NCBI GenBank assembly: GCA_017435485.1 | Contig: JAFSEY010000009.1 | Coordinates: forward strand, 1,715 to 65,714 | Reading direction: 5' to 3' | From: Bacilli bacterium | GTDB lineage: Bacteria; Bacillota_I; Bacilli_A; RF39; UBA660 | DNA: 64,000 nt | In this document: positions 30,195-45,906 of the stretch, one piece after another | How positions within the stretch are numbered: the stretch's first letter is position 1 | How the letters are laid out: the number at the start of each line of letters is the position of its first letter | The notes under the pieces: generated by a model | The model's database searches: none | Told to the model about the DNA's origin: nothing | What the model saw: the letters and a program-made list of their open reading frames with translations, nothing else | Position numbers and translations under genes: made by a program

Positions 30195-30500
30195 GAATTC
30201 ACTTTGTGTTATATTAAATATGTCAAGGAAACTTGAATATAATAAAAAAGGATATATCTAATTTTACAAGGTTAGGTACATTCCTAAATTTTGGTTTGTA
30301 CACTAAAACTCAAGCTTTGAGCGTTAGTGTACTTTTTTATTTAAATAGTATTATAAATACTAAGATAAATAGGAGGATAATTATAATAAATTGAGAAAAT
30401 TCTATTTTTTATCATAAAACATCACCTCCTTTACGTAAATGTAACGGAGTGCACCTAACGCATTAAATATATCCAAAGTCATTAAATATTTTATTAATTA
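30195..30500 (-). repeat. Inverted (reverse-complement) copy of the small-peptide locus found at 45075..45420
   Basis: The reverse complement of 30416-30470 matches 45110-45170. The peptide-ORF region and the hairpin are more than 95% identical, while the antisense-promoter segment is diverged. Confidence 0.8.
30338..30415 (-). pseudogene. Frameshifted copy of the 25-aa hydrophobic peptide gene
   Basis: It differs from the 45176 copy by atgacaaaaagag to atgataaaaaatag, a +1 insertion that gives the non-hydrophobic reading MIKNRIFSIYYNYPP... Confidence 0.4.
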
Positions 30501-30590
30501 TATAGGCAAACCACAAAAAAAAGAAGTTTAGATAATAGTTACGAAGTTAAAAATTTATTGGTGTTAACAAATTTATATCTTATCGAAAAA

Positions 30591-30633
30591 AAGAATTACT
30601 ATCTAAGCAAATATCGCTAAATAGTAATTCTTT
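30591..30633 (-). terminator. tyrS rho-independent terminator
   Basis: A 12-bp stem (aagaattactat/atagtaattctt) overlaps the stop codon and is followed by a U7 run on the minus strand. Confidence 0.55.
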
Positions 30634-31829
30634 TTTCCTTTTTTTATTATTATAACTTTCTCATCAATTGCCATACTTTTTGAGATAACTAAATCAACAT
30701 CAGTTACTTTTTTATTATTTATGCTTATTGCATTTCCTGTTACCATTTCTCTAGCTTCTCTTTTACTAGAACAGATTCCATTATTAACTAATACATCAAT
30801 AATATTTTCTTCATTAGTCAAAGTTACTTGTTTAACATCTTTAAAATTAGCAATAATGTCATTAGCACTTAAGTTAACAATGTCTTCTGTAAATAATGCT
30901 TCACTAATTTTTAAAGCCTTTTCATATTCTTCATGACCATGTAAGAATGTAATTACTTCTTCTGCTAGTTTTTTATGAGCACGACGTTTTTCTGGAGCTA
31001 CATTATGTTCTTTTTCAATTTCTTCAATCTCTTCTTTGCTTAAGAAAGTTAGTTTTTTTAGATAATCAATTACCATACTATCTTCAACATTTATGAAAAA
31101 TTGAAACATTTCATAACTAGAAGTTTTGTTAATATCTAACCAGATGGCATTACCTTCTGTTTTACCAAATTTCGTACCATCAGACTTTGTAATTAATGGC
31201 ATGGTAAATCCATAAGCTTCTTTACCAATTTTTTTTCTGATTAATTCAATACCAGCAGTAATGTTTCCCCATTGATCTTGACCAGCCACTTGCATAGTAC
31301 AATTACGCGTTTCATATAAATGTAAGAAATCTAATGCTTGCATGATCATATAAGAAAATTCAGTATAAGTAATTCCTAATTCTAATCTTCTTCTTACGAT
31401 ATCTTTATTTAACATATAAGAAACATTAAAATATTTACCGTAGTCTCTTAAAAAATCAATAAAATTGATATCTTTACACCAATCATAGTTGTTTACTACT
31501 TCAAATCCAAAAATCTTTTTGGCTTGATTAGTTAAGCATTCAACATTATGAGCAACTGCTTGTTTAGTAATCATGGCTCTTTCTGCAGTTGGCTTTGGAT
31601 CTCCAATTTGTCCAGTAGCTCCTCCTACTAACAATATTGGATTATGACCAGCTTTTTTTAATCTTGTTGCAATTAAGAAAGATGAGAAGTGTCCAATGTG
31701 CATTGAATCTCCAGTTGGATCTGTTCCAATGTAAAATGTCATTCCTCCGTTATTTAATTTTTCAATTAATGCCGGATCAGAAAAATCTTTTATTAACCCT
31801 CTCCATAATAATTCATCATATATTTTCAT
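30603..31829 (-). CDS. tyrS: Tyrosine--tRNA ligase
   Basis: A HIGH-type motif (DPTGDSMHIGH), a KMSKS-type motif (KFGKT) and a C-terminal S4 domain are present. Confidence 0.95.
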   Translation of the reverse strand: MKIYDELLWRGLIKDFSDPALIEKLNNGGMTFYIGTDPTGDSMHIGHFSSFLIATRLKKAGHNPILLVGGATGQIGDPKPTAERAMITKQAVAHNVECLTNQAKKIFGFEVVNNYDWCKDINFIDFLRDYGKYFNVSYMLNKDIVRRRLELGITYTEFSYMIMQALDFLHLYETRNCTMQVAGQDQWGNITAGIELIRKKIGKEAYGFTMPLITKSDGTKFGKTEGNAIWLDINKTSSYEMFQFFINVEDSMVIDYLKKLTFLSKEEIEEIEKEHNVAPEKRRAHKKLAEEVITFLHGHEEYEKALKISEALFTEDIVNLSANDIIANFKDVKQVTLTNEENIIDVLVNNGICSSKREAREMVTGNAISINNKKVTDVDLVISKSMAIDEKVIIIKKGKKNYYLAIFA

Positions 31830-31839
31830 AAATACCCTC

Positions 31840-32469
31840 CTATAATATATCTTTTAATTCATATATATTTTTTATTGTTTTTTCATTTGATTCTTCTTGT
31901 TTTGTTAACCAAATGGCATCCATCCCTAATTTTTTAGGGGTTTCATAATCCAATTTTTTATTATCACCAATCATTAAGCATTCTTCAAATTTAGTACCAT
32001 TAGCAGCCATAAAATAAGCTTCTTTATTCGGTTTGCTATGAAGATCAGCACCATATACTTCTTTAAAATATTTCGCTATTTCATATTTTTCCAATCTTTT
32101 ATATTGTGATTCATAAAAGAAATTAGTTAAAACTACAAGTTCATATTTACTAGCTAAATATTCCAAAGTTTTAATTAGTTTTTCATCTTTACTAACTGGT
32201 ACACAATCCCCAACCCATTCTTTAATTAATAAGAGCATTTCATCGGTAATAGTTATACCTGATAATTCACTAACTAATTTTTTAAAATTTTCATCATTAT
32301 AATTTTGGCTATTATTTTCATATTCATCGATACTATCAGCAATATGAACTAATTGTTGTAAATCTAAACTAATGTTGTGATTTTTAACTAGTTCAACAAA
32401 ATTCATGTAATACTCTTTTGTCCAAGGAATAAGAGTATCATCTAAATCAAATATTATTCTCTTTATCAT
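31840..32469 (-). CDS. HAD-superfamily hydrolase (subfamily IA)
   Basis: The N-terminal motif I (FDLDDTLI) and motif IV (GDN) are present. It is co-transcribed with tyrS across a 10-nt gap. Confidence 0.7.
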   Translation of the reverse strand: MIKRIIFDLDDTLIPWTKEYYMNFVELVKNHNISLDLQQLVHIADSIDEYENNSQNYNDENFKKLVSELSGITITDEMLLLIKEWVGDCVPVSKDEKLIKTLEYLASKYELVVLTNFFYESQYKRLEKYEIAKYFKEVYGADLHSKPNKEAYFMAANGTKFEECLMIGDNKKLDYETPKKLGMDAIWLTKQEESNEKTIKNIYELKDIL

Positions 32470-32652
32470 TGTGCCTCCTAAAATAAAAAATTCATAAACA
32501 AAGGACGAGCTTATACCCGCGGTACCACCTTTATTTATGAATTATCATACACTTTATGTTATAACGTTACAAACGTTTTGACTCCAGAGTCGTAAATTCC
32601 TTCATTGTCAAATGTAGCTTAATTATACTATTAAAACTTATTTAATTCAAGC
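32470..32652 (-). promoter_or_regulatory. T-box riboswitch leader for the HAD-tyrS operon
   Basis: The minus-strand RNA contains AAAGGUGGUACCGCGGG (plus-strand 32516-32532, cccgcggtaccaccttt), which is the conserved T-box sequence. A downstream terminator/antiterminator (CAUAAAUAAAGG...CCUUUGUUUAUG plus a U-run) and a candidate UAC specifier follow. Confidence 0.65.
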
Positions 32653-33060
32653 TTATTTTTCTTCTATTTTAGCGGCAGCTTCTTTTAATAATTTAGCGGC
32701 TTGTTTTTTTACAGACTTAGCAGCATCTTCAACTATTGGAGTTGCTTTTTCTTTTGCTAATTCAGCTAACTCTTCCGCTTTTTTACTAATTTCTTTTGCT
32801 TTTTTCTTAACAACTGCAACTACTTTTTCTTTATCTAAATCTGCTAACTCATTTTGAAGTTCTTTTACTTTTAACTCAATATTTTCTTTTACTTCTTCAA
32901 TATCGATATCTTTAGCTTTATTTAAAAGTTCATCTAATTTGGCTTTTAACTCTTTTCTAGTTTGTTCTCCTTTTTTAGGAGCAAAAAGCATTCCTAAGCC
33001 TACACCTAAACCAGCTCCTACTAAAAATTTTCCAATTCCACCTTTTTTACTCATCTTCAT
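32653..33060 (-). CDS. YtxH-like protein with an N-terminal transmembrane segment and coiled coil (real start MKMSKKGG at 33060, preceded by GGAGG)
   Basis: The track ORF extends upstream without an RBS, whereas the internal ATG at 33060 has a GGAGGAAT Shine-Dalgarno sequence. It has GAGLGVGLGMLFAPKKGEQTRKELK followed by a Lys/Glu-rich coiled coil. Confidence 0.55.
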   Translation of the reverse strand: MKMSKKGGIGKFLVGAGLGVGLGMLFAPKKGEQTRKELKAKLDELLNKAKDIDIEEVKENIELKVKELQNELADLDKEKVVAVVKKKAKEISKKAEELAELAKEKATPIVEDAAKSVKKQAAKLLKEAAAKIEEK

Positions 33061-33346
33061 ATTCCTCCTCGTTTTGATTTTTCTTTTTTTTGAATAATCT
33101 TTTGGCAAAAAAGTCGCTAATAAAACTGACAAATTTGTCAGATAAAGATGCAATTTTGTCTGTAGTAAAGTCAATAAGGGAAAAAAAACCATTAAAAGAT
33201 TCTACTTTTTCTGTTACATCATCAACTACTTTTTCTACCTTATCTATAGTATTAATCGCTTTTATACCAATTATTATACCAACTATTAAAATTACTATTA
33301 AAAGTATATAAATGATTATCGGTAAAAATGACAACCAAAATTCCAT
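33047..33346 (-). CDS. DUF948-like small membrane protein (YtxG-like)
   Basis: It is 99 aa with an N-terminal transmembrane segment and a coiled coil. Its pairing with a YtxH-like gene is typical of Firmicutes. Confidence 0.5.
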   Translation of the reverse strand: MEFWLSFLPIIIYILLIVILIVGIIIGIKAINTIDKVEKVVDDVTEKVESFNGFFSLIDFTTDKIASLSDKFVSFISDFFAKRLFKKKKNQNEEEYEDE

Positions 33347-34191
33347 TAATCATCAACCTCCTTTTTATCATCATACATAGAATCAATTAATTCAAATAAA
33401 TCTTGTTCTAAAGTATCATCATCACTAGGTTCTTTTATTTTATCATCTAGAATTAAATCATCTTCTTCGTCAATTTTGTCTAATTCATCTTCTATTTCCT
33501 TAATATTATTTTCTAATTCTAAGTCTTCATCTACTATAATAGTTTCTTCGGCACTATCTTCTAATAGCTCATCTAGAGTTTTCGCTTTTATTTCAGGTAT
33601 TTCTAATTCATAAGGCTTTTTTAATTCAATTTCTTCAGGTTCTTCAATTGTATCTTTAATATCATCTTCTAAAGACCCAAATGCTTTTTTTCTTACAACA
33701 TCAACATCTAGACGACTTTGTCTTTTTATAGCATCCTCTTTTACTTTTGGCATTATGTCATCTGGATGATAATCTTTATCTAAGATACCATAAACTGGAG
33801 ATATTATTGGAGATGGCTTAAACTTTCTCTTTTCATTATTTCTAATATCTCGCTCTCTTTCAAATAAACGATAATCATGTTTAACTGGTTCTACTTTTTT
33901 CTTTCTTTCTTCTGGATATTCCCTAACCACTTTTGGCTTTGGTTTTGGTAAAGTATTTTCGAATTCATCCTCGTCGAAAGCAGGAAAATTAAAAGTATTT
34001 TCTGATTTAAATAATTCTCTTTCACTTAAATCCTCATGAATCGTAATTGTTTTTTTAGCTTGTTCTAGTTTTTCTTCGGCCTCAATTACAGCTGTTGGAG
34101 TAGCTATTTTTTCTTCTTTTACTGGAGTTACTGGAACTTCTATCTCTTCTTCCTCAAAAAGAATATTTTTAATTTTACTAATAAAACCCAT
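33346..34191 (-). CDS. Highly acidic hypothetical protein
   Basis: It is 281 aa, rich in Glu/Asp/Lys, with no motif recognised. Confidence 0.35.
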   Translation of the reverse strand: MGFISKIKNILFEEEEIEVPVTPVKEEKIATPTAVIEAEEKLEQAKKTITIHEDLSERELFKSENTFNFPAFDEDEFENTLPKPKPKVVREYPEERKKKVEPVKHDYRLFERERDIRNNEKRKFKPSPIISPVYGILDKDYHPDDIMPKVKEDAIKRQSRLDVDVVRKKAFGSLEDDIKDTIEEPEEIELKKPYELEIPEIKAKTLDELLEDSAEETIIVDEDLELENNIKEIEDELDKIDEEDDLILDDKIKEPSDDDTLEQDLFELIDSMYDDKKEVDD

Positions 34192-34205
34192 AATAGTGCA
34201 CCTTC

Positions 34206-34853
34206 CTAGTTTATTAAGTCTGTATCAGGTATATAATTATCTTCTACATCATTATCCATCAAATCTTCATCATATTTTAAAACATTACCATCATTAGATA
34301 TTGTCGAAAATATATCGTATCCTTCTTCTTTAAAATTCATAACATCTTCATCCATTAAACTAGCTATGACATTTTCATTATACGCAATAGAAGATAAAAT
34401 TGTTATTGCATAACTTATACTTTCATTTATATCGTCTTTATCTACTATCACTTCTATTTTAGCATAATTATACATAATTTCAATTAAATATTTGTTGTTT
34501 TCATAATTATTTATTTCTAAATAGCCCTTTTTTCCTGTATTTTCATAAATTTGAGAATATTCTGCTTCATTATTTTTTTTATAATTAAATACCCCTTTAT
34601 TGTAATAACTAATCCTATCAACATATAAATACATATAATATTTATTATTAGTTATAATATCATTTACGTCATTATTATTTAATAATTTTAATCCCTTAGG
34701 TAAATAATAGTTATATCCTTTACGATATACATTAACATATTTGTAATTATGATTTAAAGTATTAGCAATAATATTATCATAATCTTGATCTTTTATATTA
34801 GTACAACCGGTCATAAAAAATAAAGCAATTAACAATATAACTATTTTTTTCAT
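34206..34853 (-). CDS. Lipoprotein of unknown function
   Basis: A lipobox (LFFMTGC) follows the signal peptide, and the protein is Asn/Tyr-rich. Confidence 0.45.
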   Translation of the reverse strand: MKKIVILLIALFFMTGCTNIKDQDYDNIIANTLNHNYKYVNVYRKGYNYYLPKGLKLLNNNDVNDIITNNKYYMYLYVDRISYYNKGVFNYKKNNEAEYSQIYENTGKKGYLEINNYENNKYLIEIMYNYAKIEVIVDKDDINESISYAITILSSIAYNENVIASLMDEDVMNFKEEGYDIFSTISNDGNVLKYDEDLMDNDVEDNYIPDTDLIN

Positions 34854-34912
34854 ACTGCCTCCTATGTTTATATCATTATAACAAAAATATCTTTAATATT
34901 TCAACTTCAAGA

Positions 34913-35539
34913 TTATTTCTTATAAGCATTTAAATAATTAATTTTAAAGCCTTTTTGACTAAATTTATCTTCATATTCTGTTTTTATATTTGGTATATCA
35001 CTATTATGCAAATCTAATGAAACATCTTTAAATATATATCCGTAATTAGATAAATAAACTAAACTATCAGCAAATAACGCTATATTATCAGTTTTTTGAA
35101 TAATATGTTTTTCGTTTTCAAATATTAAATCATAAACTTTTAAAAATTCTTCATGAGTAAGCCTTCTTTTATGATGACGTTTTTTTGGCCATGGATCAGA
35201 AAAATTTAAATAAATAGTATCTATTTCATGATCAAAAATATCGGCTAATTTCAAAGCATCAAAACTAATTAAATATAAATTTGGTAATCTATTGGGCATT
35301 TTAGCTATTGCTTTAGCAATAACACTATCAAATTTTTCTAAACCAATAAAATTAATCTGAGGATTATTTAAAGCCATTTCATAAATAAATTTTCCTTTTC
35401 CCATCCCAATTTCCAAATGAAGTGGATTATTATTACCAAATAATTCTTTAAACTTTCCTTTATATTGGCAAGGTTCTTTTAATAAAAAATCACAATTATT
35501 AACAATCTCATTTTTATTTTTAATATTTCTAATACGCAT
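34913..35539 (-). CDS. trmB: tRNA (guanine46-N7)-methyltransferase
   Basis: The SAM-binding motif LEIGMGKGKFI and the TrmB-specific FSDPWPKKRHHKRRL are present. Confidence 0.9.
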   Translation of the reverse strand: MRIRNIKNKNEIVNNCDFLLKEPCQYKGKFKELFGNNNPLHLEIGMGKGKFIYEMALNNPQINFIGLEKFDSVIAKAIAKMPNRLPNLYLISFDALKLADIFDHEIDTIYLNFSDPWPKKRHHKRRLTHEEFLKVYDLIFENEKHIIQKTDNIALFADSLVYLSNYGYIFKDVSLDLHNSDIPNIKTEYEDKFSQKGFKINYLNAYKK

Positions 35540-35594
35540 TTATATCACTACTTTCTTTTTATTTACATATAATAGGAAGTAAGGAGGAATACCC

Positions 35595-35921
35595 ATGAAA
35601 AAAGATCGAAATACATTTTTTCAAGAAGCTCAAATGAGTTCTGCTAGTTATTTTCCCAATCCTAATATGAATATGAACATGATGAGTGCCAATAGTCCAA
35701 CGGTAGCAAGTCAAGCTAGTCAAAGCTTTTATTCAGGACCAGGAGCATATCCTAATAATATGATGCCTAGCGGAACTTATGCTGTTAATGATTTAGAAAG
35801 TCGCTTAGCTAAAATGGAACGGCAAATTAATCGTTTAGAAACCAGAGTTAGTAAATTAGAAAATCAACCAACCTATCAAGTAGATGACTATGATAATCAA
35901 ACCAATATGTATATGGTATAA
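35595..35921 (+). CDS. Hypothetical protein with an Asn/Met-rich N-terminus and a C-terminal coiled coil
   Basis: This is a 108-aa ORF with a GGAGG RBS. It is one of the few plus-strand genes. Confidence 0.35.
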   Translation: MKKDRNTFFQEAQMSSASYFPNPNMNMNMMSANSPTVASQASQSFYSGPGAYPNNMMPSGTYAVNDLESRLAKMERQINRLETRVSKLENQPTYQVDDYDNQTNMYMV

Positions 35922-35942
35922 CTTACTTAAAAAGTAAGTTTT
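35919..35942. terminator. Bidirectional terminator hairpin (aacttactt-aaaa-agtaagtt)
   Basis: This perfect 9-bp palindrome lies between convergent genes. Confidence 0.45.
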
Positions 35943-35943
35943 T

Positions 35944-36114
35944 TTATGAATAAACAATCATTGCACTAAAACAATATAATTGCTCTTCTCCACAAGTACT
36001 TATAGCAACATTGTATTTTATATCAATAATGTCAGCCTCAATGGTACTTAAAAAAGCATTAATAGCATTCTCTAAATCTTTTTCATGACTCTCATCAAAT
36101 ATTTTAACTTTCAT
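35944..36114 (-). CDS. Sporulation protein Cse60 (YteV)-like, 56 aa (not in the ORF track)
   Basis: The minus-strand translation is MKVKIFDESHEKDLENAINAFLSTIEADIIDIKYNVAISTCGEEQLYCFSAMIVYS. It matches the Cse60 pattern (VKIFDEEHE.DLE...F...IIDI.Y......GEQ.Y.FSA.I.Y). Confidence 0.5.
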   Translation of the reverse strand: MKVKIFDESHEKDLENAINAFLSTIEADIIDIKYNVAISTCGEEQLYCFSAMIVYS

Positions 36115-36214
36115 CTTATCACCTTTATAATATTAACACTTTAAAAGGTCGTAATTTGACAAATTAATGATACTATTATATAATAAATCGCACTAAAAAA
36201 AAAGAGGGGTTATT

Positions 36215-37034
36215 ATGTCAATACCATTAAATTATGTAAAAAAGAACGCTCATAGATATAAACGAACAAATAATAGTATTTTATATAAAAAAGATGATCA
36301 ACTTTATAAAGTTTTTAAGAAAATTGATTTTAAAGATGTGACATCTAAGCAAATTGAATATAATAATATGCTTAGAAATGAAGTCAGTTCTACAATTGTC
36401 TTACCTACTGATATAATTAGAGAAACTGATGATTATTATGACTATAGCGTTTTAGGTTATGAACAACCATATATTCTATCTTATACTTTTCAAGCTTGCT
36501 TAAAGAAAAATATTCCATTAGATAAAAGAAAACTTATTGTTAATAGTTTATTTAAAAGCTTAGAAGAAATAAATAAATAAATACTTAGTAGTTGGCGATA
36601 TTAATCTAGAAAACCTACTTTTCCCAAAAGAAAAAACTGATAATAATGGGTATATGATCGATTTAGATTTTGCTAAAAGATTAAATAGTAACATCTTAAT
36701 GCGCAGTAATTATAATATACGTGGAAAGCATAGTCTTATTGCTAATTATGACACAAATACTGATATAATTAAAATGTTTATATCTACTCTATCTTTTCTT
36801 TATAAATATAATTTTGAAGAACTTGTGTCAGAACCTCAATTTCCTACATTAGATATTATTTTAGATATGTTACAAAAGTTAGAAAATAATGGTATTTTAA
36901 TGAGTTATTGTAAATATTTAAAAGATTATTATGATAAAGGTTTGTTAATTGACCAATATTTAGAAATTCCATCAAACTATAATATAGAAAAAGAAATTAA
37001 TCACGGTATTAGTAGATTAAGAAATTTTAAATAA
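36215..37034 (+). pseudogene. Protein-kinase-like (PKL) fold gene, paralog of 37050..37823, split into two ORFs by a frameshift at an (AAAT)4 tract; phase-variation candidate
   Basis: ORF1 ends ...IVNSLFKSLEEINK and the downstream +1 frame continues YLVVGDINLENLLFPKEK...MIDLDFA, matching the paralog LQEAHQFLIVGDVAARNCMIPKD...YLIDFDFA. Removing one AAAT unit restores a single ORF. Confidence 0.5.
36567..36582 (+). repeat. (AAAT)4 tetranucleotide repeat at the frameshift site
   Basis: The sequence gaa gaa AAATAAATAAATAAAT ac was read directly from the window. Confidence 0.9.
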
Positions 37035-37049
37035 AAATGGAGCATAACC

Positions 37050-37823
37050 ATGAAACTAGAAGGTCATCAAGCTAATTTTTATACGAGCACTTTTTCAGCT
37101 GATTTATATCGCAAACAAGAATATATTTATAAAATCATTAAAAAAACATTTATTGGTTCAAATCATGTTTTAAAACAGATTAAATATAATTATGCAATAT
37201 CTAAAGAAACTAGTGAAAGCCTAGTTTTACCAAATAAACTTTTAGCAGATAATATTTATAGAATGAATTTTATTGAAGGATACAATATTGATACTTGCTT
37301 TAAAAATAAAAGTATTTCTTTAGAGAAAAGGATTGCAATAGTAAACAGTTTATTTAGAACTTTACAAGAAGCTCATCAATTTTTAATAGTCGGAGATGTT
37401 GCTGCAAGAAATTGTATGATTCCTAAAGATATTCATGACAAAAATATTTATTTGATTGATTTTGATTTTGCAGCACCAATAAAAGCTAGTTATGAAGCGA
37501 TATCATCATATGATATTGTTTCTGAAAGAGGAATAATTATTTCAAGTAATTGTAATAGCGATATTGTCAAACTATTTATTGTTAGTCTAAATCTTTTATA
37601 TCAATATGATTTTGAAAAGAAATTTATAAGGCATCCAAAGTTAAAACTGGTTAGAGAATTTTTAAGAGAAAATGTTCAAAATAATGGATATCTTTTAGAA
37701 TATTTTAACTATATAAGTGATGGGATTGAAAATAATCATCCATTTGAATATTTACACCTTCCTGATTCTAGGGCATTTAGAAATGAAATTGAAAAAGGAA
37801 TGAAAAAAATTCGTAATTTATAA
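37050..37823 (+). CDS. Protein-kinase-like fold protein (APH/CotS/Kdo-kinase-like catalytic loop), intact paralog
   Basis: It has a catalytic-loop-like LIVGDVAARNCMI and a DFG-like YLIDFDFA. It is 257 aa and lies directly downstream of the disrupted paralog. Confidence 0.5.
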   Translation: MKLEGHQANFYTSTFSADLYRKQEYIYKIIKKTFIGSNHVLKQIKYNYAISKETSESLVLPNKLLADNIYRMNFIEGYNIDTCFKNKSISLEKRIAIVNSLFRTLQEAHQFLIVGDVAARNCMIPKDIHDKNIYLIDFDFAAPIKASYEAISSYDIVSERGIIISSNCNSDIVKLFIVSLNLLYQYDFEKKFIRHPKLKLVREFLRENVQNNGYLLEYFNYISDGIENNHPFEYLHLPDSRAFRNEIEKGMKKIRNL

Positions 37824-38448: not shown

Positions 38449-38511
38449 CTTATTACCTTCTTTTTATTTTAGTATACCATTAAAGAAAAAAAATAACACC
38501 TTTATGAGATG

Positions 38512-40947
38512 TTATTTTACAACTATATTAACAATTTTATTTTTGACTACAATAACTTTAATAATTTGTAATCCCTCTGTGTGTTTTTTAACATTTTCTT
38601 CTGCTAAAGCTTTTTCTTTAACACTATCTTCAGCTTCATCTAATTCAATGTTGATGCTTCCTCTTAATTTACCATTAACTTGTACTCCAATAGTAATTTC
38701 TTTATCAATTGTTTTAGCTTCATCATATTCTGGCCAAGTACTTTCACAAATTGGTTTAAACCCTAATTGTTCATTTAATTCTTCAGTAACATGTGGAGCA
38801 ATTGGATTTAATAATGTTAATAATAATTCATAATCTTTTTTAGAAATACTTTGAGCATCTTCATATGCATTAGTTAAAATCATTAAAGCGGACACAGCTG
38901 TATTGTAAGCCATGGTTTGTAAATCATTAGTGACTTTCTTGATTGTTTTATGTTGAATTGATTCTAAAGTACTCGTAAATTCATCGCTATCATTCAATTT
39001 GCTTTGTAATCTAACTACCTTATCTAAGAAACGTTTACATCCTTTTAATGAATCGGTACTCCAAGGAGCATCCGATGTATAATCACCCATGAACATTTCA
39101 TAAATTCTTAGGGTATCTGCTCCATACTCGTTAACGATATCATCTGGATTAATAACATTTCCTTTCGATTTACTCATTTTTTCATTATTTGAACCTAAAA
39201 CCATTCCGTGAGAAACTCTAGTCCAAATCATTTCTTTATTAGGAACTAATCCAACGTTGTATAAAAATTGAACCCAGAAACGGGCATATAACAAGTGTCT
39301 TGCTGTATGTTCCATTCCACCATTATACCAATCTACTCTATTCCAATATTTCATGGCATCCATAGAAGCAAATTCTTTATCATTACATGCATCCATAAAT
39401 CTTAAGAAATACCAGGAAGATCCAGCCCAGTTTGGCATTGTATCGGTTTCTCTTTTAGCTGCGCCATGACATTTTGGGCAAGTAGTATTTACCCAATCAG
39501 TTATTTTGGCAAGTGGACTTTCGCCATTATCAGTTGGTTCATATTCTGCAACATCAGGTAATAGTAATGGTAAATCTTTTTCATCCATTGGAACCCATCC
39601 ACATTTTTCACAATGAATCATTGGAATTGGTTCTCCCCAGAATCTTTGTCTTGAGAATATCCAATCACGCATTTTATAATTATTAACTTCTCTAGCAATA
39701 CCTAAATCCACTAGTTTTTTAGTTATAGCAGGTTTAGCTTCTTCAACTGTTAGTCCATCAAACTCAGCTGAATTCATTAACTTACAACCTTTTCCTAAAT
39801 AATCATGTTTTTCAAAGGCTTTTTCTTCTACTGATGCTCCGTCAATTACTTGTATCATTTCTAAGTTATGTTCAGTTGCATATTCAAAGTCTCTTTGGTC
39901 ATGAGTTGGAACAGCCATAACTGCTCCAGTCCCGTAATCTCCTAAAACAAAGTCTCCTAAGAAAATTGGTACTTCTTTACCATTAATAGGATTAATTGCT
40001 TTGATTCCTTTAATTTCAACACCAGTTTTTCCTTTATTTAATTCAGTACGGTCCATATTAGATTTTTTAGCAGTTTCTTTAATATAGTTTTCTACTTCTT
40101 CTTTATTTTCTACACGAGGCATTAATTCTTTAATTAATTTACCATCTGGAGCAATTACAAAGAATGTAATTCCATAAACAGTTTCGATACAAGTTGTAAA
40201 GACAGAAAATTTTCCGCCTCCAACAATATCAACATCTAATTCAACACCAGTTGATTTTCCAATCCAATTTATTTGACCAAGCTTTACTCTTTCGGCAAAG
40301 TTAGTATCGTCTAAGCCAGTTAATAAATCCTCGGCATATTCACTCATTTTTAACATCCATTGAGATTTTTCCTTTTGAACTACACTGTCTCCACAACGTT
40401 CACAAACTCCACCTGCGGCATCTTCGTTAGATAAAACACTTTTACAAGTAGGACACCAGTTAACAGGAATAGTAGCTTTGTAAGCCATATTATGTTTATA
40501 AAATTGTAAGAATTGCCATTGTGTCCATTTATAATACTCTGGATCTGTTGTGGAAAATTCTCTACTCCAATCAAAAGAGAATCCTAATGATTTCATTTGC
40601 CCTTTAAACGTTTTAATATTTTCTTTAACAGCATCTTTAGGATGAATATGATTTTTAATAGCATACTGTTCAGCAGGAGCTCCAAAAGCATCCCATCCCA
40701 TAGGATATAAAACATTATATCCTTGCATTCTTTTCATTCTAGCTAAAGCATCCTGTGCTGTATAACTTCTTACATGTCCAACATGTAGTCCTGATCCTGA
40801 TGGATAAGGAAATTCTACTAATATGTAATATGGTTTTTTATCTCCATTAGTTTTAGCTTCAAATACTTTCGTATTATCCCAAAAATCTTGCCATTTCTTT
40901 TCAATATTTTTAAAATCCATTTTAATTACCTCTTTTCCTTTCAACAT
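38512..40947 (-). CDS. leuS: Leucine--tRNA ligase
   Basis: It has a HIGH motif (PYPSGSGLHVGH), a KMSKS motif, and a CP1 editing domain, and is 811 aa. Confidence 0.95.
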   Translation of the reverse strand: MLKGKEVIKMDFKNIEKKWQDFWDNTKVFEAKTNGDKKPYYILVEFPYPSGSGLHVGHVRSYTAQDALARMKRMQGYNVLYPMGWDAFGAPAEQYAIKNHIHPKDAVKENIKTFKGQMKSLGFSFDWSREFSTTDPEYYKWTQWQFLQFYKHNMAYKATIPVNWCPTCKSVLSNEDAAGGVCERCGDSVVQKEKSQWMLKMSEYAEDLLTGLDDTNFAERVKLGQINWIGKSTGVELDVDIVGGGKFSVFTTCIETVYGITFFVIAPDGKLIKELMPRVENKEEVENYIKETAKKSNMDRTELNKGKTGVEIKGIKAINPINGKEVPIFLGDFVLGDYGTGAVMAVPTHDQRDFEYATEHNLEMIQVIDGASVEEKAFEKHDYLGKGCKLMNSAEFDGLTVEEAKPAITKKLVDLGIAREVNNYKMRDWIFSRQRFWGEPIPMIHCEKCGWVPMDEKDLPLLLPDVAEYEPTDNGESPLAKITDWVNTTCPKCHGAAKRETDTMPNWAGSSWYFLRFMDACNDKEFASMDAMKYWNRVDWYNGGMEHTARHLLYARFWVQFLYNVGLVPNKEMIWTRVSHGMVLGSNNEKMSKSKGNVINPDDIVNEYGADTLRIYEMFMGDYTSDAPWSTDSLKGCKRFLDKVVRLQSKLNDSDEFTSTLESIQHKTIKKVTNDLQTMAYNTAVSALMILTNAYEDAQSISKKDYELLLTLLNPIAPHVTEELNEQLGFKPICESTWPEYDEAKTIDKEITIGVQVNGKLRGSINIELDEAEDSVKEKALAEENVKKHTEGLQIIKVIVVKNKIVNIVVK

Positions 40948-41371
40948 TTAATAAGTGTCTTCCATATATTTCATAAATAGCATAAATAAGAGCAGTTAGC
41001 AAAGCAAATCCTATTAGTAATTTAAAAATTGTTCCTAAGGGAATTAGTTCTATAATAAAAGTTACAAATGTAATAATAAAACTATTTAATAAAGGAAGCA
41101 TTATTTTTAAACTATTATAATTTAAGGAATTTCGATCCAATTTAAATTTATAAACTAAATATTCAACTTCTCCTATTTTGCTTGGTTCTTTTTTCTTGCT
41201 CTTTTTATTATTTTTTTTCTTTTTACCTAATATTTCATCAACAGCTGGTTTAGTAAGAAAAAAGTAATGAAGAACAAAAATAACTAAGTAAATTACTAAA
41301 AACGATAAAATATAGTAAGCAACATTATTCATATAAAATCCTCTTTCTAAATAAAAAAACATTCCTCCCAA
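40922..41371 (-). CDS. Small membrane protein co-transcribed with leuS
   Basis: It is 149 aa with three hydrophobic helices and a Lys-rich loop, and overlaps the leuS start by 26 nt. Confidence 0.4.
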   Translation of the reverse strand: MGGMFFYLERGFYMNNVAYYILSFLVIYLVIFVLHYFFLTKPAVDEILGKKKKNNKKSKKKEPSKIGEVEYLVYKFKLDRNSLNYNSLKIMLPLLNSFIITFVTFIIELIPLGTIFKLLIGFALLTALIYAIYEIYGRHLLNVERKRGN

Positions 41372-41573
41372 AGGACGAATGTTATCGTGGTACCACCTTA
41401 TTTTTTTCTCGTTAATCTATAAAGGAATTACCCTAACACATCCAAAAGTAAGTTCATCAATTTCTTTTCTTAGTTTTCACCAACCACTAAGTCTCTACAA
41501 AAAGAAGTTTTGATTACTACTCTTTTATCCGCTGCTTAAAACTATTATACATAATTGTCTTTTTAAAAGCAAA
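41372..41573 (-). promoter_or_regulatory. T-box riboswitch leader (Leu) for the membrane-protein-leuS operon
   Basis: The minus-strand RNA contains AAGGUGGUACCACGAUAACAUUCGUCCUUUGGGAGGAAUGUUUUUUU, a T-box sequence with an overlapping terminator hairpin. An upstream candidate specifier loop ...GAACUUAC contains a CUU codon. Confidence 0.6.
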
Positions 41574-43973
41574 TTAAATTTCTGAAATATATTCTAATAA
41601 TTTTAAAAACATTCTAATAAATCTTTTTTCAAGACCAATGTTTGCAAGTTTTCTAATGGCAATACGTTTTTTTCTAATCTCATCTTTACTAAAGAATATA
41701 ATAGCAATTTGCTCTTTTAATTTAGTATCTATTTTTAAATCACTTATGATGAAGTTTACATCTTCATTTATTATTCTAACAGCTTCTATCTCAATACTTT
41801 TTCCTCGACAATTTATATTTAAAGTTTCAGTCGTATCAACATCTTTTACTTCTATTATAAAATCATTGTCTTCTTCATATGCTGAAAAATCTAATTTATT
41901 TTTTAAATTCTTAGAAAAGACATCAACATATTCTGCTTCCTTAGAATTCCTAAAACGGATCTTATAATCGCGATGATGGGGAATTATTCCATTTTTTCCT
42001 TCAATTGGTCGAATAACAACTGTAAAATTATTAGGTTGATATTTATAATTTATTTCAGTAATAGTGTAAAAACCTTCTTTATATAAATTACTTATACCAT
42101 CATCTTCATAAAGTTTATAAGTACTATTTTGCCCTGGAAATATATGTATTTCCATTGCTCTAGGATTATTAGTAATATTTAGATTTTCTTCTAAAATAGC
42201 TAAAGGAATGATAGCTCCTGATTTAGCAAATACTGGATAATCTTCGTCTTTAAAAAATGTTACATATCTTTTATTTCCGATAAATTTTTTTCCGGATTTA
42301 AAATCATACCAAGTTCCTTTTGGTAAATAAATTCTTTCAACTGATCTATTCATTGTTAAATCTTTTGGTTTGGTAATTGGAGCAATCAATAAATTTTTAC
42401 CTAAATAGTATTCATTTTTATATAAAGGTTCATCTATTATTTCTGGATAGTTATAATATAGTGGTTGTATTAATGGTTGATATTCTTTATGATAGCGATA
42501 GCTTTCTGTATACAAATATGGTATTAAACGATGACGAAGGTTACAATAATCTCTTACAATATTATAAGTGTTATTATCCCATAGCCAAGGTTCTCTTTTA
42601 TAATATAGCCCTCTTCTTGCACTAAATCGAAAGATCGGACTAAAGGTTGCTAATTGAACATGTCTTGTATATAACTCACTATCTTCAATCCCATTTTTAA
42701 ATCCGCCAACATCATGGCTCCACCAAGAAGCTCCTATATTAGCTGAATTGGAGTTAAAGAAAGGTATGAAATTTAAAGTTTGCCAATTAACTATTGTTTC
42801 TCCAGAATAGCTAATCGGATAACGATGTGATGCTATTAAAGCATTTCTAGACAACATCATTCCTCTTTTTTCTTTATCATTTTCCATTTCTTTATAATGA
42901 TAATAATTTAAAGCTCTTAAGTTTAAAATGTCTTTTTTATAATCAAGCCAAAAGAAATCAATACCGAGTTTTTTCAATGGATTTATTAAATATTTAAAAT
43001 ACGAATCCATAAATTTGGGGTCTAAAGCATTAAATGGTATTATTTTGTTATCATTCAATCCCAAAGAAATGGCGAAATTATTATAATTTGTTTCATGTGG
43101 ATAAACCCCCTCTTCAGGATCTATATTAATCCCTACTCTAATTCCCCTTTGATGCATGTAACTAACAAATTCCGATGGGTTTGGAAATAATCCAGTATCA
43201 AATGTATATCCTGTTTTAAATTTTGAATAATCTTCAGTATTTTTTAAATGCCAAAATTCACTTAACAACAAAGTAGACATAGGTATTTTATATCTGTTAA
43301 AGGCTTTTATTAATGTTTTTATATTTTCAAATGAATATATTTTATCCCTATTCCACCATATTCCAAGCGCATATCTTGGTATTAATGGACTAGTTCCGGT
43401 AAGCGTAAAATAATCCTTTAAACACATCCCAAAATCTTTATTATATATAAACAAATAAGTATCAACTCGTCTGTTTTGCGCTTTAAATAAAGTTTTATCT
43501 TGCATTATTAAAAATGATTCAGAATCATCAAAAGAAGCAAACCCATCGATTGAAAAAAGTCCATTTATCAATTTTGTATTGCTTGGTGAATCCGCATTTA
43601 TTTCAGAAGCTGTTGATTTGAAATTTTTTGCTTCGGGATGATTAAAGAACCACACTTTGTCAGTATTTTTTAGGACTACTTTTAAATTAGTATCTGGAGC
43701 ATATTTTGGCCCTAAATAAGGTTTTTCTTTTTGATATAAAAGTGCAAAATATTTCCCTTCAATTTCTAAATATTTTTGGTCTTCTTCGTATTTTAAATTA
43801 ACATCAGGAAAATCTCTGTTAATAGCAAATTCTGTTGGTAAATCTAAAAATTCTCCTCCTATGTTATATTCAAAACGAATTAAGCGTTCAGTTAAAATAG
43901 TAATTCGATAATATTTTCCTTGAAAAACATTTTGGGTTGTATTCTTATTTTTACTTTCAGCCATTTTACTCAC
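41574..43973 (-). CDS. Glycoside hydrolase family 31 (alpha-glucosidase/alpha-xylosidase-like)
   Basis: The GH31 catalytic region (GIDFFWLDYKKD with the nucleophile Asp, and WWSHDVGGF with the acid/base region) is present, and the protein is 799 aa. Confidence 0.8.
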   Translation of the reverse strand: MSKMAESKNKNTTQNVFQGKYYRITILTERLIRFEYNIGGEFLDLPTEFAINRDFPDVNLKYEEDQKYLEIEGKYFALLYQKEKPYLGPKYAPDTNLKVVLKNTDKVWFFNHPEAKNFKSTASEINADSPSNTKLINGLFSIDGFASFDDSESFLIMQDKTLFKAQNRRVDTYLFIYNKDFGMCLKDYFTLTGTSPLIPRYALGIWWNRDKIYSFENIKTLIKAFNRYKIPMSTLLLSEFWHLKNTEDYSKFKTGYTFDTGLFPNPSEFVSYMHQRGIRVGINIDPEEGVYPHETNYNNFAISLGLNDNKIIPFNALDPKFMDSYFKYLINPLKKLGIDFFWLDYKKDILNLRALNYYHYKEMENDKEKRGMMLSRNALIASHRYPISYSGETIVNWQTLNFIPFFNSNSANIGASWWSHDVGGFKNGIEDSELYTRHVQLATFSPIFRFSARRGLYYKREPWLWDNNTYNIVRDYCNLRHRLIPYLYTESYRYHKEYQPLIQPLYYNYPEIIDEPLYKNEYYLGKNLLIAPITKPKDLTMNRSVERIYLPKGTWYDFKSGKKFIGNKRYVTFFKDEDYPVFAKSGAIIPLAILEENLNITNNPRAMEIHIFPGQNSTYKLYEDDGISNLYKEGFYTITEINYKYQPNNFTVVIRPIEGKNGIIPHHRDYKIRFRNSKEAEYVDVFSKNLKNKLDFSAYEEDNDFIIEVKDVDTTETLNINCRGKSIEIEAVRIINEDVNFIISDLKIDTKLKEQIAIIFFSKDEIRKKRIAIRKLANIGLEKRFIRMFLKLLEYISEI

Positions 43974-44072
43974 CCTCTTTTAGTATTCATAATTATGTTA
44001 TCATAAAAGTCTTTTTATTACAATTGCTAGATTTTTAAAAAATATACGTTATAATAATTACCGGGTGATATT

Positions 44073-44993
44073 ATGTTTAAATATTCTTTAGATAATAAAA
44101 GATATCATACATTAAATTATTTTTTGAAAAACAAGTTTAATTCAAAAGTTTTTAAAGTAAGCTTGAATGCCGGATTTTCCTGTCCTAATAAAAAAAATGG
44201 TAATGGTTGCATATTTTGTAGTGAGGGTTCAGGAGATTTTGGTGGCGATAAAGAAAAGGATTTAGTAACTCAGTTTAATGAAGTAAAAGACAAAATTAGT
44301 AAGAAATGGCCGAATAGTAAATATATTGCCTATTTTCAAGCTAATTCTAATACTTATGCGCCATTAGAAGAATTAAAAGAAAAATACGAAACAGTAATTA
44401 ATCTTCCAAATGTAGTTGGCCTTGCAATAGCAACGAGAAGTGATTGTTTGGAAGATGATATTTTAGATTATTTAGCAGAACTTAATAGAAAAACTTTTTT
44501 AATGATTGAATTAGGATTACAATCTATGCATGATAAAACTCTAAAGTTAATTAATCGTGGTCATGATTTAAAAAACTTTGAAGAAGCTGTCAAAAAGTTG
44601 CAAGAAAGAAATATTTTTATCACTGTTCATATTATTAATGGCCTACCAGGTGAAAATCAACAAGATATGATTGAAACCGTAAAATATTTAAATAGTCTAG
44701 ATATAAATTCCTTAAAAATTCATATGCTTAGTGTTTTAAAGGATACTTCATTAGAAAGATATTATGAACAAAAAAAATTCCCTATATTATCCAAGGAAGA
44801 ATATATTGACATTGTTTGTGAGCAATTACAATATTTAAATGAAAATATTATAATTGGAAGAATTACAGGAGATCCTGATCCGTTAAAATTAATAGTTCCA
44901 AATTGGCTCATTAAAAAGTTTTGTGTTTTAAATGATATTGATAAAAAAATGAAAGAATTAAATATTTATCAAGGTGATAAAGTTAATAAATAG
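44073..44993 (+). CDS. Radical SAM protein, TIGR01212 (YhcC/YtqA-like) family
   Basis: A CxxxCxxC-type cluster (CPNKKNGNGCIFCSEG) and a family-typical C-terminal domain are present. Confidence 0.75.
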   Translation: MFKYSLDNKRYHTLNYFLKNKFNSKVFKVSLNAGFSCPNKKNGNGCIFCSEGSGDFGGDKEKDLVTQFNEVKDKISKKWPNSKYIAYFQANSNTYAPLEELKEKYETVINLPNVVGLAIATRSDCLEDDILDYLAELNRKTFLMIELGLQSMHDKTLKLINRGHDLKNFEEAVKKLQERNIFITVHIINGLPGENQQDMIETVKYLNSLDINSLKIHMLSVLKDTSLERYYEQKKFPILSKEEYIDIVCEQLQYLNENIIIGRITGDPDPLKLIVPNWLIKKFCVLNDIDKKMKELNIYQGDKVNK

Positions 44994-45074
44994 AATTTAT
45001 TTGATTACAAAATAAACCTGTACTAATTTAAAATAGTTTATTTTTGATTTATATTAATGACAAAAATAGAAATG

Positions 45075-45112
45075 TGATAATTTGCTCTAAAAAATTACTT
45101 ATTATATAATGA
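45075..45112 (+). promoter_or_regulatory. Sigma-A-like promoter of small-peptide gene copy 1 (TTGCTC-17 nt-TATAAT)
   Basis: It was read from the sequence. A near-identical promoter (TTGCTC-17-TATAAT) lies at about 45514-45551 for copy 2. Confidence 0.4.
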
Positions 45113-45175
45113 CTTTGGATATATTTAATGCGTTAGGTGCACTCCGTTACATTTACGTAAAGGAGGTGAGGTTTT

Positions 45176-45253
45176 ATGACAAAAAGAGAATTTTCTCAAT
45201 TTATTATAATTATCCTCCTATTTATCTTAGTATTTATAATACTATTTAAATAA
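45176..45253 (+). CDS. 25-aa hydrophobic peptide MTKREFSQFIIIILLFILVFIILFK; type I toxin-like
   Basis: An AAAGGAGGTGA RBS lies 8 nt upstream, and a 5' UTR segment CACUCC can pair with the SD. It has a single transmembrane helix with a charged N-terminus. Confidence 0.45.
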   Translation: MTKREFSQFIIIILLFILVFIILFK

Positions 45254-45256
45254 AAA

Positions 45257-45293
45257 AGTACACTAACGCTCAAAGCTTGAGTTTTAGTGTACT
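45257..45293. terminator. Strong bidirectional hairpin (agtacactaa...ttagtgtact, 10-bp stem plus an inner ctcaa/ttgag stem) directly after the peptide ORF
   Basis: It was read from the sequence. An identical hairpin occurs in the inverted copy at about 30303-30340. Confidence 0.5.
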
Positions 45294-45335
45294 AACCAAA
45301 ATTTAGGAATGTACCTAACCTTGCAAAATTAGATA

Positions 45336-45415
45336 TATCCTTTTTTATTATATTCAAGTTGCCTTGACATATTTAATATAACATAAATGCAATAATTTGA
45401 CAATTAGTAAATCAT
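45336..45415 (-). promoter_or_regulatory. Conserved 80-bp segment carrying a convergent minus-strand promoter (TTGTCA-17 nt-TATATT) aimed at the peptide ORF; candidate antisense-RNA promoter
   Basis: The same segment is repeated at 45775-45856, and a diverged copy occurs at about 30195-30270 (reverse complement). Confidence 0.4.
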
Positions 45416-45617
45416 TATAAATTTGTTATATACTTTTGATTAAAATATTAATATTATAATTATAAACATCCATTTTTAGTCCACATTCATGACAAATATA
45501 AAAATGTGGTAATTTGCTCCTAAAAATAACTTAGTATATAATTTTTTCGGATACATTTGAAAAGTCGGGTGTTTTCCCTTTCAAAAATCTTTAGATTAAA
45601 GAAAGGTGGTGATAATT

Positions 45618-45695
45618 ATGACTAAAAGAGAATTCTCTCAATTTATTATAATTATACTATTGTTCTTTATAGTAATAACTTTATTATATAGATAA
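45618..45695 (+). CDS. 25-aa hydrophobic peptide MTKREFSQFIIIILLFFIVITLLYR; second tandem copy
   Basis: It has a GAAAGGTGGTGA RBS. A 5' UTR CCCTTTC can pair with the SD. A hairpin follows at 45706-45736. Confidence 0.45.
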   Translation: MTKREFSQFIIIILLFFIVITLLYR

Positions 45696-45906
45696 TAAAA
45701 ACATCTGATTTCAACTAAAGTTGATTTCAGATGACTATCCAGAAGGGATTACATCTGGTTCTAGCAATCAAATGTATCCTTTTTTTTATTATATTCAAGT
45801 TGCCTTGACATATTTAATATAACATAAATGCAATAATTTGACAATTAGTAAATCATAATATTTTATAAAAAAAGAAATTAATCTAAGTTGATAATTTCTT
45901 AAATTA

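Follow-up and report, generated by a model that had tools for sequence, protein, structure and literature searches.

The question raised by this locus is whether a short module, found three times within 64,000 nucleotides of a Bacilli bacterium genome (assembly GCA_017435485.1, contig JAFSEY010000009.1, positions 1,715 to 65,714 of the forward strand; the whole stretch is hereafter called the window), is a toxin-antitoxin locus, a gene of another kind, or a repeat whose coding potential is incidental. The window has a GC content of 27.4% and comes from a ruminant gut metagenome assembly (ENA XIEF21-1 scaffolds). The module pairs an open reading frame (ORF) for a small hydrophobic peptide with a convergent antisense gene, and an earlier reading of the DNA (the original prediction) took it for a toxin-antitoxin locus of type I, of the Fst or TxpA sort. 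The answer reached here is related: with a probability of about 0.77, each module is a type I toxin-antitoxin-like gene pair, belonging to a previously undescribed family.

The copies are named A and B, which lie in tandem on the plus strand, and C, which is inverted. An nhmmer profile built from the relatives described below matched exactly these three copies in the window and none besides, with a size of ~310-330 bp: A at 45094-45404 (plus strand), B at 45532-45845 (plus strand) and C at 30185-30486 (minus strand); the repeat search agreed with it, and the number and arrangement of the copies are those foreseen in the original prediction. A degenerate pattern for the peptide gave two matches in the window, against 0.00 by chance. 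A and B form a direct pair that shares a 79-nt block with 99% identity (45341-45419 and 45782-45860), while their ORF regions are just 77% identical in the alignment; despite the 99%-identical antisense promoter and 5' segment, they represent different subfamilies, with different leaders and different hairpins, HP1 and HP2.

Regarding the anatomy of copy A, its sense promoter (45082-45110, plus strand) consists of a -35 TTGCTC (45082-45087), a 17-nt spacer and a -10 TATAAT (45105-45110); transcription is predicted to start at the G at 45117 (plus strand) and, judging from the folds, to yield a toxin mRNA of ~232 nt (45117-45348, plus strand). This mRNA comprises, in order, a 5' leader hairpin, an anti-Shine-Dalgarno tract CACUCC (45140-45145), the Shine-Dalgarno (SD) sequence AAGGAGGUGA (45160-45169), the ORF, HP1, HP2 and a U-tract; when folded, its 5' end GGAUAUAUUUAAU pairs with AUUAGAUAUAUCC, located directly 5' of the U-tract. 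The ORF (45176-45253, plus strand) encodes 25 amino acids, MTKREFSQFIIIILLFILVFIILFK, the same peptide as that of the intact copy-C ortholog in a goat metagenome-assembled genome (MAG; locus L052), and its codons 13-15 hold a CCUCC that is also able to pair with the SD. HP1 (45257-45293) is followed on the minus-strand side by UUUUUUAUUU, and HP2 (45306-45340) is followed on the plus strand by a T-run (45341-45346; the whole element 45306-45346); since the T-run of HP1 lies on the minus strand and that of HP2 on the plus strand, HP1 would terminate the antisense RNA and HP2 would be the intrinsic terminator of the mRNA. HP1 also folds within the mRNA 3' untranslated region (UTR), and both arms of HP2 double as the 3' partner of a long-distance helix with the leader. 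The single bidirectional hairpin proposed for this place has to be replaced by these two hairpins, each with a T-run on one strand, and by an overlap of ~100 nt between the two RNAs.

The antisense promoter of copy A is TTGTCA-17-(TG)TATATT (45375-45403, minus strand; 10/12 with the TG). In the predicted RNA of ~119 nt (45250-45368, minus strand; fold z-score -4.0), the 5' hairpin GUCAAGGCAACUUGA is followed by an A-rich linker, then by a leader-like hairpin, and HP1 closes the molecule as its terminator. This RNA overlaps the 3' end of the mRNA by ~99 nt and touches the ORF at the stop codon and the last base of the final sense codon only. In copy B, the sense promoter TTGCTC-17-TATAAT (45514-45542, plus strand; predicted start at the G at 45549) would give an mRNA of ~241 nt (45549-45789, plus strand), with the anti-SD CCCUUUC at 45576-45582, the SD AGAAAGGUGGUGA at 45600-45612, an ORF for the 25-residue peptide MTKREFSQFIIIILLFFIVITLLYR (45618-45695, plus strand), HP1 at 45701-45733 and HP2 at 45745-45779, followed by a U-tract; the minimum-free-energy fold holds a 5'-3' helix, GGAUACAUUUGA/UCAAAUGUAUCC. 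The predicted antisense RNA of copy B (~118 nt; 45692-45809, minus strand) ends at the HP1 terminator with UUUUUAUUAU, and its promoter is TTGTCA-17-(TG)TATATT (45816-45844, minus strand; 10/12). Both 25-residue ORFs were found with the claimed coordinates and sequences. The sense promoters of A and B have a perfect -10 and a poor -35 (3/6), the reason why the promoter scanner missed them; the best promoter-like site of this region, on either strand, is the convergent TTGTCA-17-TG-TATATT, whose version in copy C is slightly weaker.

As for copy C, it contains a homologue of the toxin mRNA that is 95% identical to that of A (30244-30474, minus strand), with HP1 at 30297-30333, HP2 at 30250-30284 and its T-run at 30244-30249 (all minus strand). 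Its sense promoter is weakened to TTGCCT-17-TTTAAT (30481-30509, minus strand), so that the TTGCTC-17-TATAAT promoter ascribed to every copy holds for A and B but not for C. Within the ORF region (30337-30415), a base change and a 1-nt insertion directly after the ATG (ATGATAAAAAATAG where the intact copy has ATGACAAAAAGAG) produce a +1 frameshift and leave a non-hydrophobic 24-residue ORF, as the original prediction had noticed. The antisense gene of copy C (30187-30340, plus strand; promoter TTGTTA-17-(TG)TATATT at 30187-30215, start near 30222, RNA end at ~30340) appears intact, and this gene might thus serve as an orphan antitoxin, one with a match to copy A as well. The convergent TTGTCA-17-TATATT promoter is present at A and B, with the TTGTTA variant at C.

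Relatives were found by a degenerate DNA pattern for MTKREFSQF(I/M) in a collection of species-representative genomes; the pattern matched 73 loci in MAGs, nearly all of them "uncultured Bacilli" from the gut of rabbit ("Lapin"), sheep or goat, with two named Erysipelotrichaceae. Most of these loci code for one identical 25-residue peptide, MTKREFSQFIIILLLFLVVIILLLK, through 47-49 different DNA sequences. A nucleotide profile over the same loci collected 118 copies, 84 near full length, and tandem arrays of 2-5 copies are common. Sister subfamilies keep all the RNA features and differ in their peptides (27-30 residues, e.g. MKKKDLLISFLILIIILLVASIMILCIKK and MSKKDFLIFFLIIIILLLIVLLFVILK), and the complementary mRNA termini co-vary by subfamily. 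Overall, the predicted mRNAs measure 224-250 nt and the ORFs encode 25-30 residues with one hydrophobic stretch each; the N-terminus is short and basic, ~16-17 hydrophobic residues follow in one run, and the C-terminal residue is K or R.

Across 49 distinct ORF sequences, diversity at codon positions 1/2/3 was 0.159/0.052/0.312, and the codon differences of the main clade were 61 synonymous versus 15 non-synonymous, where random expectation is 27% synonymous. Because the variation sits at third codon positions and is mostly synonymous, the 25-residue ORF is, by this signature, a real gene under purifying selection; the possibility raised at the outset, that the elements are a dispersed repeat with no conserved coding potential, does not agree with an ORF that is kept across dozens of species. 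The module and the adjacent tRNA genes are ~80-92% identical between species, whereas neighbouring genes are at most 75% identical or unalignable. The closest genome is a goat-caecum MAG, "Bacilli bacterium RGIG1752", with 94% identity over 8 kb around copy C, and the goat ortholog of copy C is intact.

The promoters and the RNA folds are conserved in the same set. All of the modules (84/84) have the antisense promoter, TTGnnA-17-TG-TAT(T/G/A)(A/T)T; its spacer measures 17 nt in 82/84, and 80/84 carry the extended TG. On the sense side, 66/84 read TATAAT at the -10 and 65/84 have an extended TG. For the full-length mRNAs, the minimum-free-energy fold contained the long-distance helix in all 10 representatives chosen from all subfamilies; it joins the first ~28 nt to the last ~35 nt before the U-tract and encloses the whole ORF. 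This conserved helix, in competition with the terminator of the same mRNA, is the module's most distinctive trait and was missing from the original prediction. RNAalifold, run on 59 non-redundant mRNAs, predicted this helix independently; on this alignment, 97.3% of the cells are paired, 22/30 pairs show double changes, and there are 182 compensatory cells versus 44.5 ± 5.6 in shuffled data, with 0/500 shuffles reaching 182; slid-partner controls were 29-44% paired. The local fold (leader hairpin, HP1 and HP2) attained 95.3% pairing and 117 compensatory cells, and HP1 covaries in the family, with double changes in 6/8 pairs. Thus two leader segments and both arms of HP2 are kept mutually complementary, which is the signature of a conformational switch; moreover, the helix runs from the predicted +1 to the U-tract and in this way cross-validates the predicted ends of the transcript.

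The wobble pairs add the strand to this picture. Of the cells in the long-distance helix, 1021 are Watson-Crick, 82 are G·U and 7 are A·C, and the leader hairpin has 107 G·U versus 2 A·C; a G·U count so far above A·C indicates complementarity selected at the RNA level and not the identity of a DNA repeat, and on this asymmetry an origin of the 5'-3' complementarity as the terminal inverted repeats of a miniature inverted-repeat transposable element (MITE) was rejected. In the HP2 region, the antisense hairpin on the minus strand has 54 G·U versus 5 A·C, and the same region on the sense strand has 39 G·U versus 21 A·C; the bias of the antisense hairpin is a separate argument that the minus strand is transcribed and folded. 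The alignment of the antisense RNA supports its 5' hairpin, leader-like hairpin and terminator (94.2% paired; 121 compensatory cells versus 29.5 shuffled). From these patterns, selection seems to act on both RNAs, on each in its own reading direction, and the claim of a convergent cis-antisense gene is reinforced by them together with the promoter found in every module.

Regarding translation, the SD of the module is very strong (AAAGGUGGUGA or AAGGAGGUGA), and its pairing partners are the leader anti-SD and often a CUCC or CCUCC within the ORF. The mean unpaired probability of the SD window is 0.15-0.18 in the modules versus 0.45 in 32 ordinary genes of the window; pairing with the anti-SD is predicted as well, and the SD-sequestering leader of the original prediction is upheld on both counts. 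A further candidate, a closed fold that exposes the SD relative to the antisense-bound state, was rejected, as the difference in accessibility was not meaningful.

The decayed copies are one-sided. Leaving locus-end truncations aside, 19 keep the antisense-promoter side without the toxin promoter or the leader, and the reverse case occurs 0 times; copy C of the window fits this pattern, with its ORF frameshifted, its -10 weak and its antisense promoter kept. A 19:0 ratio is what a poison-antidote pair predicts, and this asymmetry, together with SD sequestration, is indirect evidence that the peptide may be toxic. Among the relatives there are also orphan fragments of ~70-120 bp, composed only of the HP2 3' arm, the 5' part of the antisense RNA and its promoter (L057 3892-3994; L062 57-158 and 1538-1658; L059 4164-4243; L021 7402-7469; L073 275-377; L034 767-867; L067 6224-6306); several directly adjoin tRNA genes, and they may be leftover antitoxin stubs or an independent element of tRNA flanks.

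As for the way the module may work, we infer that both strands are transcribed. A sigma-A-type promoter would produce an mRNA of ~230-240 nt for the 25-residue peptide (25-30 residues in sister subfamilies), which would presumably enter the membrane and be harmful when made. The mRNA would be translationally silent, with its strong SD paired with the leader anti-SD and often with the CUCC/CCUCC of the ORF, and it would switch between two conserved, mutually exclusive folds. The local one, with the leader hairpin, HP1 and the terminator HP2, would form during transcription; in the long-distance one, ~28 nt of the leader would pair with both HP2 arms and close the mRNA up to the base before the U-tract, a form that probably shields both ends from exonucleases and hides part of the antisense target. 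The convergent promoter would yield an antisense RNA of ~120 nt, ending at HP1 and complementary to ~100 nt of the mRNA 3' UTR (HP1 and HP2). The body of this RNA is a sequence paralogue of the mRNA leader, and as such it would compete with the leader for the same 3' partner. Its most likely action would be a long duplex leading to decay by an RNase III-type enzyme, as in TxpA/RatA, BsrE/SR5 and YonT/SR6; it may also hold the mRNA in the SD-sequestered fold.

A second property of the relatives is their link to tRNA genes. Strikingly often, a module or array lies close to a tRNA 3' end: at least 25 of them do so, at a distance of 38-53 nt and always in convergent orientation (L005, L006, L009, L011, L015, L017, L019, L021, L023, L027, L033, L040, L044, L049, L053, L054, L057-L059, L061, L062, L064, L070, L074 and L077). 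The antisense RNA thus comes after the tRNA and shares its strand; the offset of these cassettes is fixed at ~45 nt, and the antitoxin side is always toward the tRNA. At least nine tRNA identities are involved, namely Leu-tag, Leu-caa, Thr-ggt, Thr-cgt, Arg-tct, Arg-cct, Arg-acg, Ala-tgc and Met. The interval between tRNA and module holds a trailer hairpin (AAACTCGGA..TTCGAGT) and a covarying hairpin with the antisense -35 in its loop; module-free tRNA trailers have the same first hairpin and then TTTT directly. Copies A-C do not lie beside tRNAs, and the Rfam scan of the window at gathering level lists no tRNA gene, ARAGORN not having been applied to it. A bolder idea, speculative and rather unlikely, is that the antitoxin is a leader mimic that toggles a two-state mRNA switch, between the closed helix and the terminator hairpins, instead of just covering the ribosome site, and that the cassette colonises tRNA 3' ends in reduced-genome gut Bacilli; if true, the tRNA linkage would either couple the antitoxin supply to read-through of the tRNA operon or reflect a new, integrase-free and tRNA-targeted form of spread.

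Several points weigh against a toxin-antitoxin pair. Both transcripts and their ends are predictions, the counts over modules are phylogenetically non-independent, and the decay asymmetry may be inflated, as the 3' part is better conserved across subfamilies and the profile picks it up more readily. Predicted SD accessibility is nearly the same in the closed fold (0.18), the local fold (0.15) and the antisense-masked state (0.15), and with near-equal access in all states the switch alone does not explain how translation turns on; in hok, tisB and aapA1, the step that activates translation is a processing event (PMC5416894). For the antisense RNA against the 5' leader in trans, the RNAduplex energies were marginal at best, 0 to 3.5 standard deviations over shuffles, and the duplexes were diffuse. 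Many type I systems reside on plasmids or phages, and no match was found among the plasmids, phages and viral contigs searched. Finally, the main peptide varies less than is usual among type I toxins, being identical in most of ~60 species, and such near-invariance could also suit a housekeeping small membrane protein. This last point is the starting place of a rival explanation, in which the peptide is a useful and non-toxic small membrane protein, a regulator or a complex subunit, tightly controlled by mRNA structure and by a cis-antisense RNA. Besides a peptide almost invariant over dozens of species, this explanation can call on a module more conserved than its neighbouring genes, on a chromosomal location with no plasmid or phage match, and on a common length, many small membrane proteins having 25-30 residues; all the same, it is unlikely. 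Several copies occur, in tandem, and their genomic surroundings vary without any partner gene that stays the same, the subfamily peptides are quite different while the RNA architecture is the same, pseudogenised copies are frequent and their decay strictly one-sided (19:0), the SD is triply locked, and the layout corresponds point by point to that of known type I systems (PMC8594479, PMC7472228).

The other two explanations are much weaker candidates. The clear coding signature of the ORF, the tolerance of G·U (82 cells) but not of A·C (7 cells), a helix that spans the predicted +1 to the U-tract, and conserved promoters outside the complementary termini make it very improbable that the module amounts to a miniature element, mobile or repetitive (MITE-like, or else a tRNA-operon terminator/insulator cassette), with terminal inverted repeats and an incidental ORF, even if it is ~330 bp long, multi-copy and often at contig ends, has complementary termini that co-vary by subfamily, abuts tRNA 3' ends at a fixed 38-53 nt in at least 25 copies or arrays, and forms arrays whose contexts differ between relatives that are 94% identical. 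The few flanking ORFs that were inspected included no transposase that was noticed, and the aligned upstream flanks held no tRNA-fragment direct repeat, target-site duplications not having been searched for; mobility by some route would add to a toxin-antitoxin function and not replace it. Just as improbable is that the module serves chiefly to make the ~120-nt small RNA of the minus strand, which may be co-transcribed with upstream tRNA genes, or linked to them in function, and act on other targets in trans, with the peptide mRNA in a secondary role as its sponge or regulator. For this view, conservation over all subfamilies is highest in the segment made up of the antisense promoter and the 5' part of the RNA, a segment that also persists alone beside tRNA genes; only this segment is 99% identical between A and B of the window, and the antisense hairpin has a wobble bias of its own. 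Against it, the covariation of the RNA body is with the mRNA of its module and with no outside target, the peptide is under strong purifying selection, and no trans target was found, none having been searched for.

If the toxin-antitoxin interpretation is true, it adds a type I family in an uncultured, low-GC (27%) lineage of gut Bacilli, for which the literature search found no type I toxin-antitoxin system described. It also exposes a gap in annotation, as an exact look-up of 10 peptide variants in a collection of 15 billion proteins found none of them present. The 59 non-redundant sequences, from several subfamilies, carry four joint constraints (the peptide, two mRNA folds and the antisense RNA), and with such a dataset the model of a metastable or closed toxin mRNA can be tested outside the proteobacteria.

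Regarding the repeats as such, A and C form an inverted repeat (45103-45403 versus 30187-30488) with two matching blocks of 223 nt at 95% and 83 nt at 96% identity, a 1-nt indel between these blocks, and 14.6-14.8 kb from arm to arm. Copy A is 95.4% identical to copy C, 92.5% to the goat ortholog of C and 86% to the goat A-type copy; because A is nearer to C and to its goat ortholog than to the goat A-type copy, the comparison suggests gene conversion or a recent duplication between the inverted copies. In the goat MAG, the array (L047 6284-7485) has the same A-type to B-type order plus a third B-type copy, and lies between unrelated flanking genes, including a GroEL-like gene; for that reason, the A/B-type array is best read as having moved, or the genome as having been rearranged at the array. 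In another contig (L002 1-1816), where tyrS is identical and the HAD gene nearly so (208 vs 209 residues), the upstream neighbourhood differs from that of the window and includes a 567-residue melibiase/GH31-like gene; this difference indicates a strain-level rearrangement close to the inter-repeat block.

Short-read contigs very often end in a module or within ~300 nt of it, both in the same species (L002-L004, L078, L083, L084) and in others (L016, L036, L050, L051, L056, L068), and one contig of 14,622 bp is exactly the segment between copies C and A of the window. The contigs retrieved by exact-protein look-ups of flanking genes showed the reference order, or a break inside copy C or A; a scan of a metagenome collection gave no match to the inverted junction, and neither did the control scan for the reference junction, which makes the first negative uninformative. 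An inversion of the segment at 30.5-45.1 kb is a possibility. In practice, the module repeats break the metagenome assemblies of this lineage, with contigs that end inside the repeats, and they may drive rearrangements, for example of the 14.6-kb segment between the inverted copies.

As for the genes enclosed by the inverted repeats, the tyrS, trmB, leuS and GH31 block named in the original prediction was found there; it comprises tyrS, a HAD hydrolase, YtxH, trmB (PF02390), leuS (preceded by a T-box leader), and genes for a GH31 enzyme and a radical SAM protein. The T-box leader (41368-41540, minus strand), upstream of leuS (38512-40947, minus strand), scored 95.9 bits against a gathering score of 93, and it is the sole Rfam match at gathering level in the 64 kb. 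Elsewhere in the window, two tandem copies of 49 nt with 94% identity (9190-9287), each containing a GC-rich hairpin CTCGC-ACCACCCGAGA-GCGAG, sit in a 272-nt gap between an ORF of 157 residues with no known function (8654-9127, minus strand) and the gene of a TraG/VirD4-type type IV coupling protein (9400-11679, minus strand). This pair has no Rfam match; it might represent an oriT, or belong in some other way to an integrated conjugative element.

Turning to known families, type I toxins are defined as hydrophobic peptides of 20-60 residues on an mRNA of 150-400 nt (PMC8594479), and the modules, with 25-30 residues and 224-250 nt, lie within both ranges; at the sequence level, the antisense gene has its own promoter, its own terminator and ~100 nt of perfect complementarity to the mRNA. 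Scans of eight peptide variants with Pfam, NCBIfam and PADLOC gave nothing meaningful, with no Pfam or NCBIfam match even at E ≤ 10; in the module region, Rfam reported no antitoxin RNA family (Fst RNA II, RatA or SR4-type) at gathering level and only noise at E ≤ 10, and a literature search returned no paper with the string MTKREFSQF. Because none of Pfam, NCBIfam, PADLOC and Rfam matched, these searches support a new family of the type I kind, outside Fst and TxpA. Of the Fst- or TxpA-like layout proposed originally, the Gram-positive type I arrangement stands, with the antisense RNA on the 3' side (PMC8594479); membership in those families does not, given the missing profile match and the lack of PXXXG and of a charged C-terminal tail.

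The B. subtilis systems TxpA/RatA, BsrG/SR4, BsrE/SR5 and YonT/SR6 resemble the module in having an antisense RNA on the 3' side that pairs perfectly, over a long stretch, with the 3' end of the mRNA (PMC8594479), and BsrG also in that its SD is partly sequestered; RNase III-dependent decay is documented for TxpA and YonT (cited in PMC5416894). Their antisense RNAs overlap the ORF, whereas in the module the overlap stops at the stop codon (45250 versus an ORF end at 45253 in copy A, 45692 versus 45695 in copy B), and their toxins are prophage-borne, have 30-59 residues and are unrelated to the module peptides. We know of no 5'-3' closing helix described for the TxpA, BsrG, BsrE and YonT systems.

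Such a closure is instead a feature of hok/sok and ldr/rdl of enterobacteria, where a 5'-3' closed mRNA (tac/fbi) alternates with metastable local hairpins; the likeness serves as a working analogy only. The hok mRNA is stable and translationally inert, as presumed for the module, and its chromosomal copies are often inactivated (PMC5416894). In contrast, Sok binds the 5' leader (mok region), inside the mRNA, and the module antisense RNA covers the 3' UTR; in addition, the module transcript has no leader ORF and its peptides no Pfam Hok match, Hok, with ~50 residues, is unrelated to them, and the module host is of a Gram-positive lineage. The aapA1/IsoA1 and aapA3/IsoA3 pairs of Helicobacter pylori share with the module a peptide of ~30 residues, an mRNA fold that masks the SD, embedded SD-sequestering sequences, and multiple chromosomal copies, some of them mutationally inactivated (PMC5416894, PMC6733600). 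The aapA mRNAs, like those of hok, also resemble the module in how a closed 5'-3' fold competes with local hairpins. IsoA, unlike the module antisense RNA with its 3' UTR target, is complementary to the 5' UTR and translation start, and there is no sequence similarity; for aapA1, processing of the 3' end has been shown to activate translation.

SprA1/SprA1as of Staphylococcus aureus likewise has a 3'-side antisense RNA that lies off the ORF, and a membrane peptide of 30 residues (PMC8594479). SprA1as acts in trans on the ribosome-binding site through a 5' domain outside the overlap, a kind of pairing that could not be demonstrated for the module (0 to 3.5 standard deviations over shuffles, as given above); PepA1 is in the Fst family and the module peptides are not.

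Finally, the Fst/RNA II systems (par of pAD1 and the chromosomal par-like loci, in the Fst/Ldr superfamily; family features from PMC7472228) have convergent promoters and an overlap limited to the 3' end, outside the ORF, as well as a small peptide with a single membrane span and multi-copy chromosomal loci, all of them as in the module. Fst RNA I also has an SD-sequestering stem-loop and a helix that hides the extreme 5' end (5'-UH) (PMC7472228); the SD pairing of the module, and its 5' end paired from nucleotides 1-2, are analogous to these, with no evidence of homology. Unlike Fst, the module peptides have no PXXXG, Pro, Gly or charged C-terminal tail, and their charge is N-terminal; in place of a single bidirectional terminator used by both RNAs, there are two terminators and an overlap of ~100 nt; no collinear repeats like DRa/DRb lie over the translation start, the order of the module's repeated segments being inverted with respect to the leader; and it is the terminator hairpin itself that the 5' end pairs with. 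Of the systems compared, Fst/RNA II and SprA1 are the closest to the module in having an antisense RNA that does not overlap the ORF.

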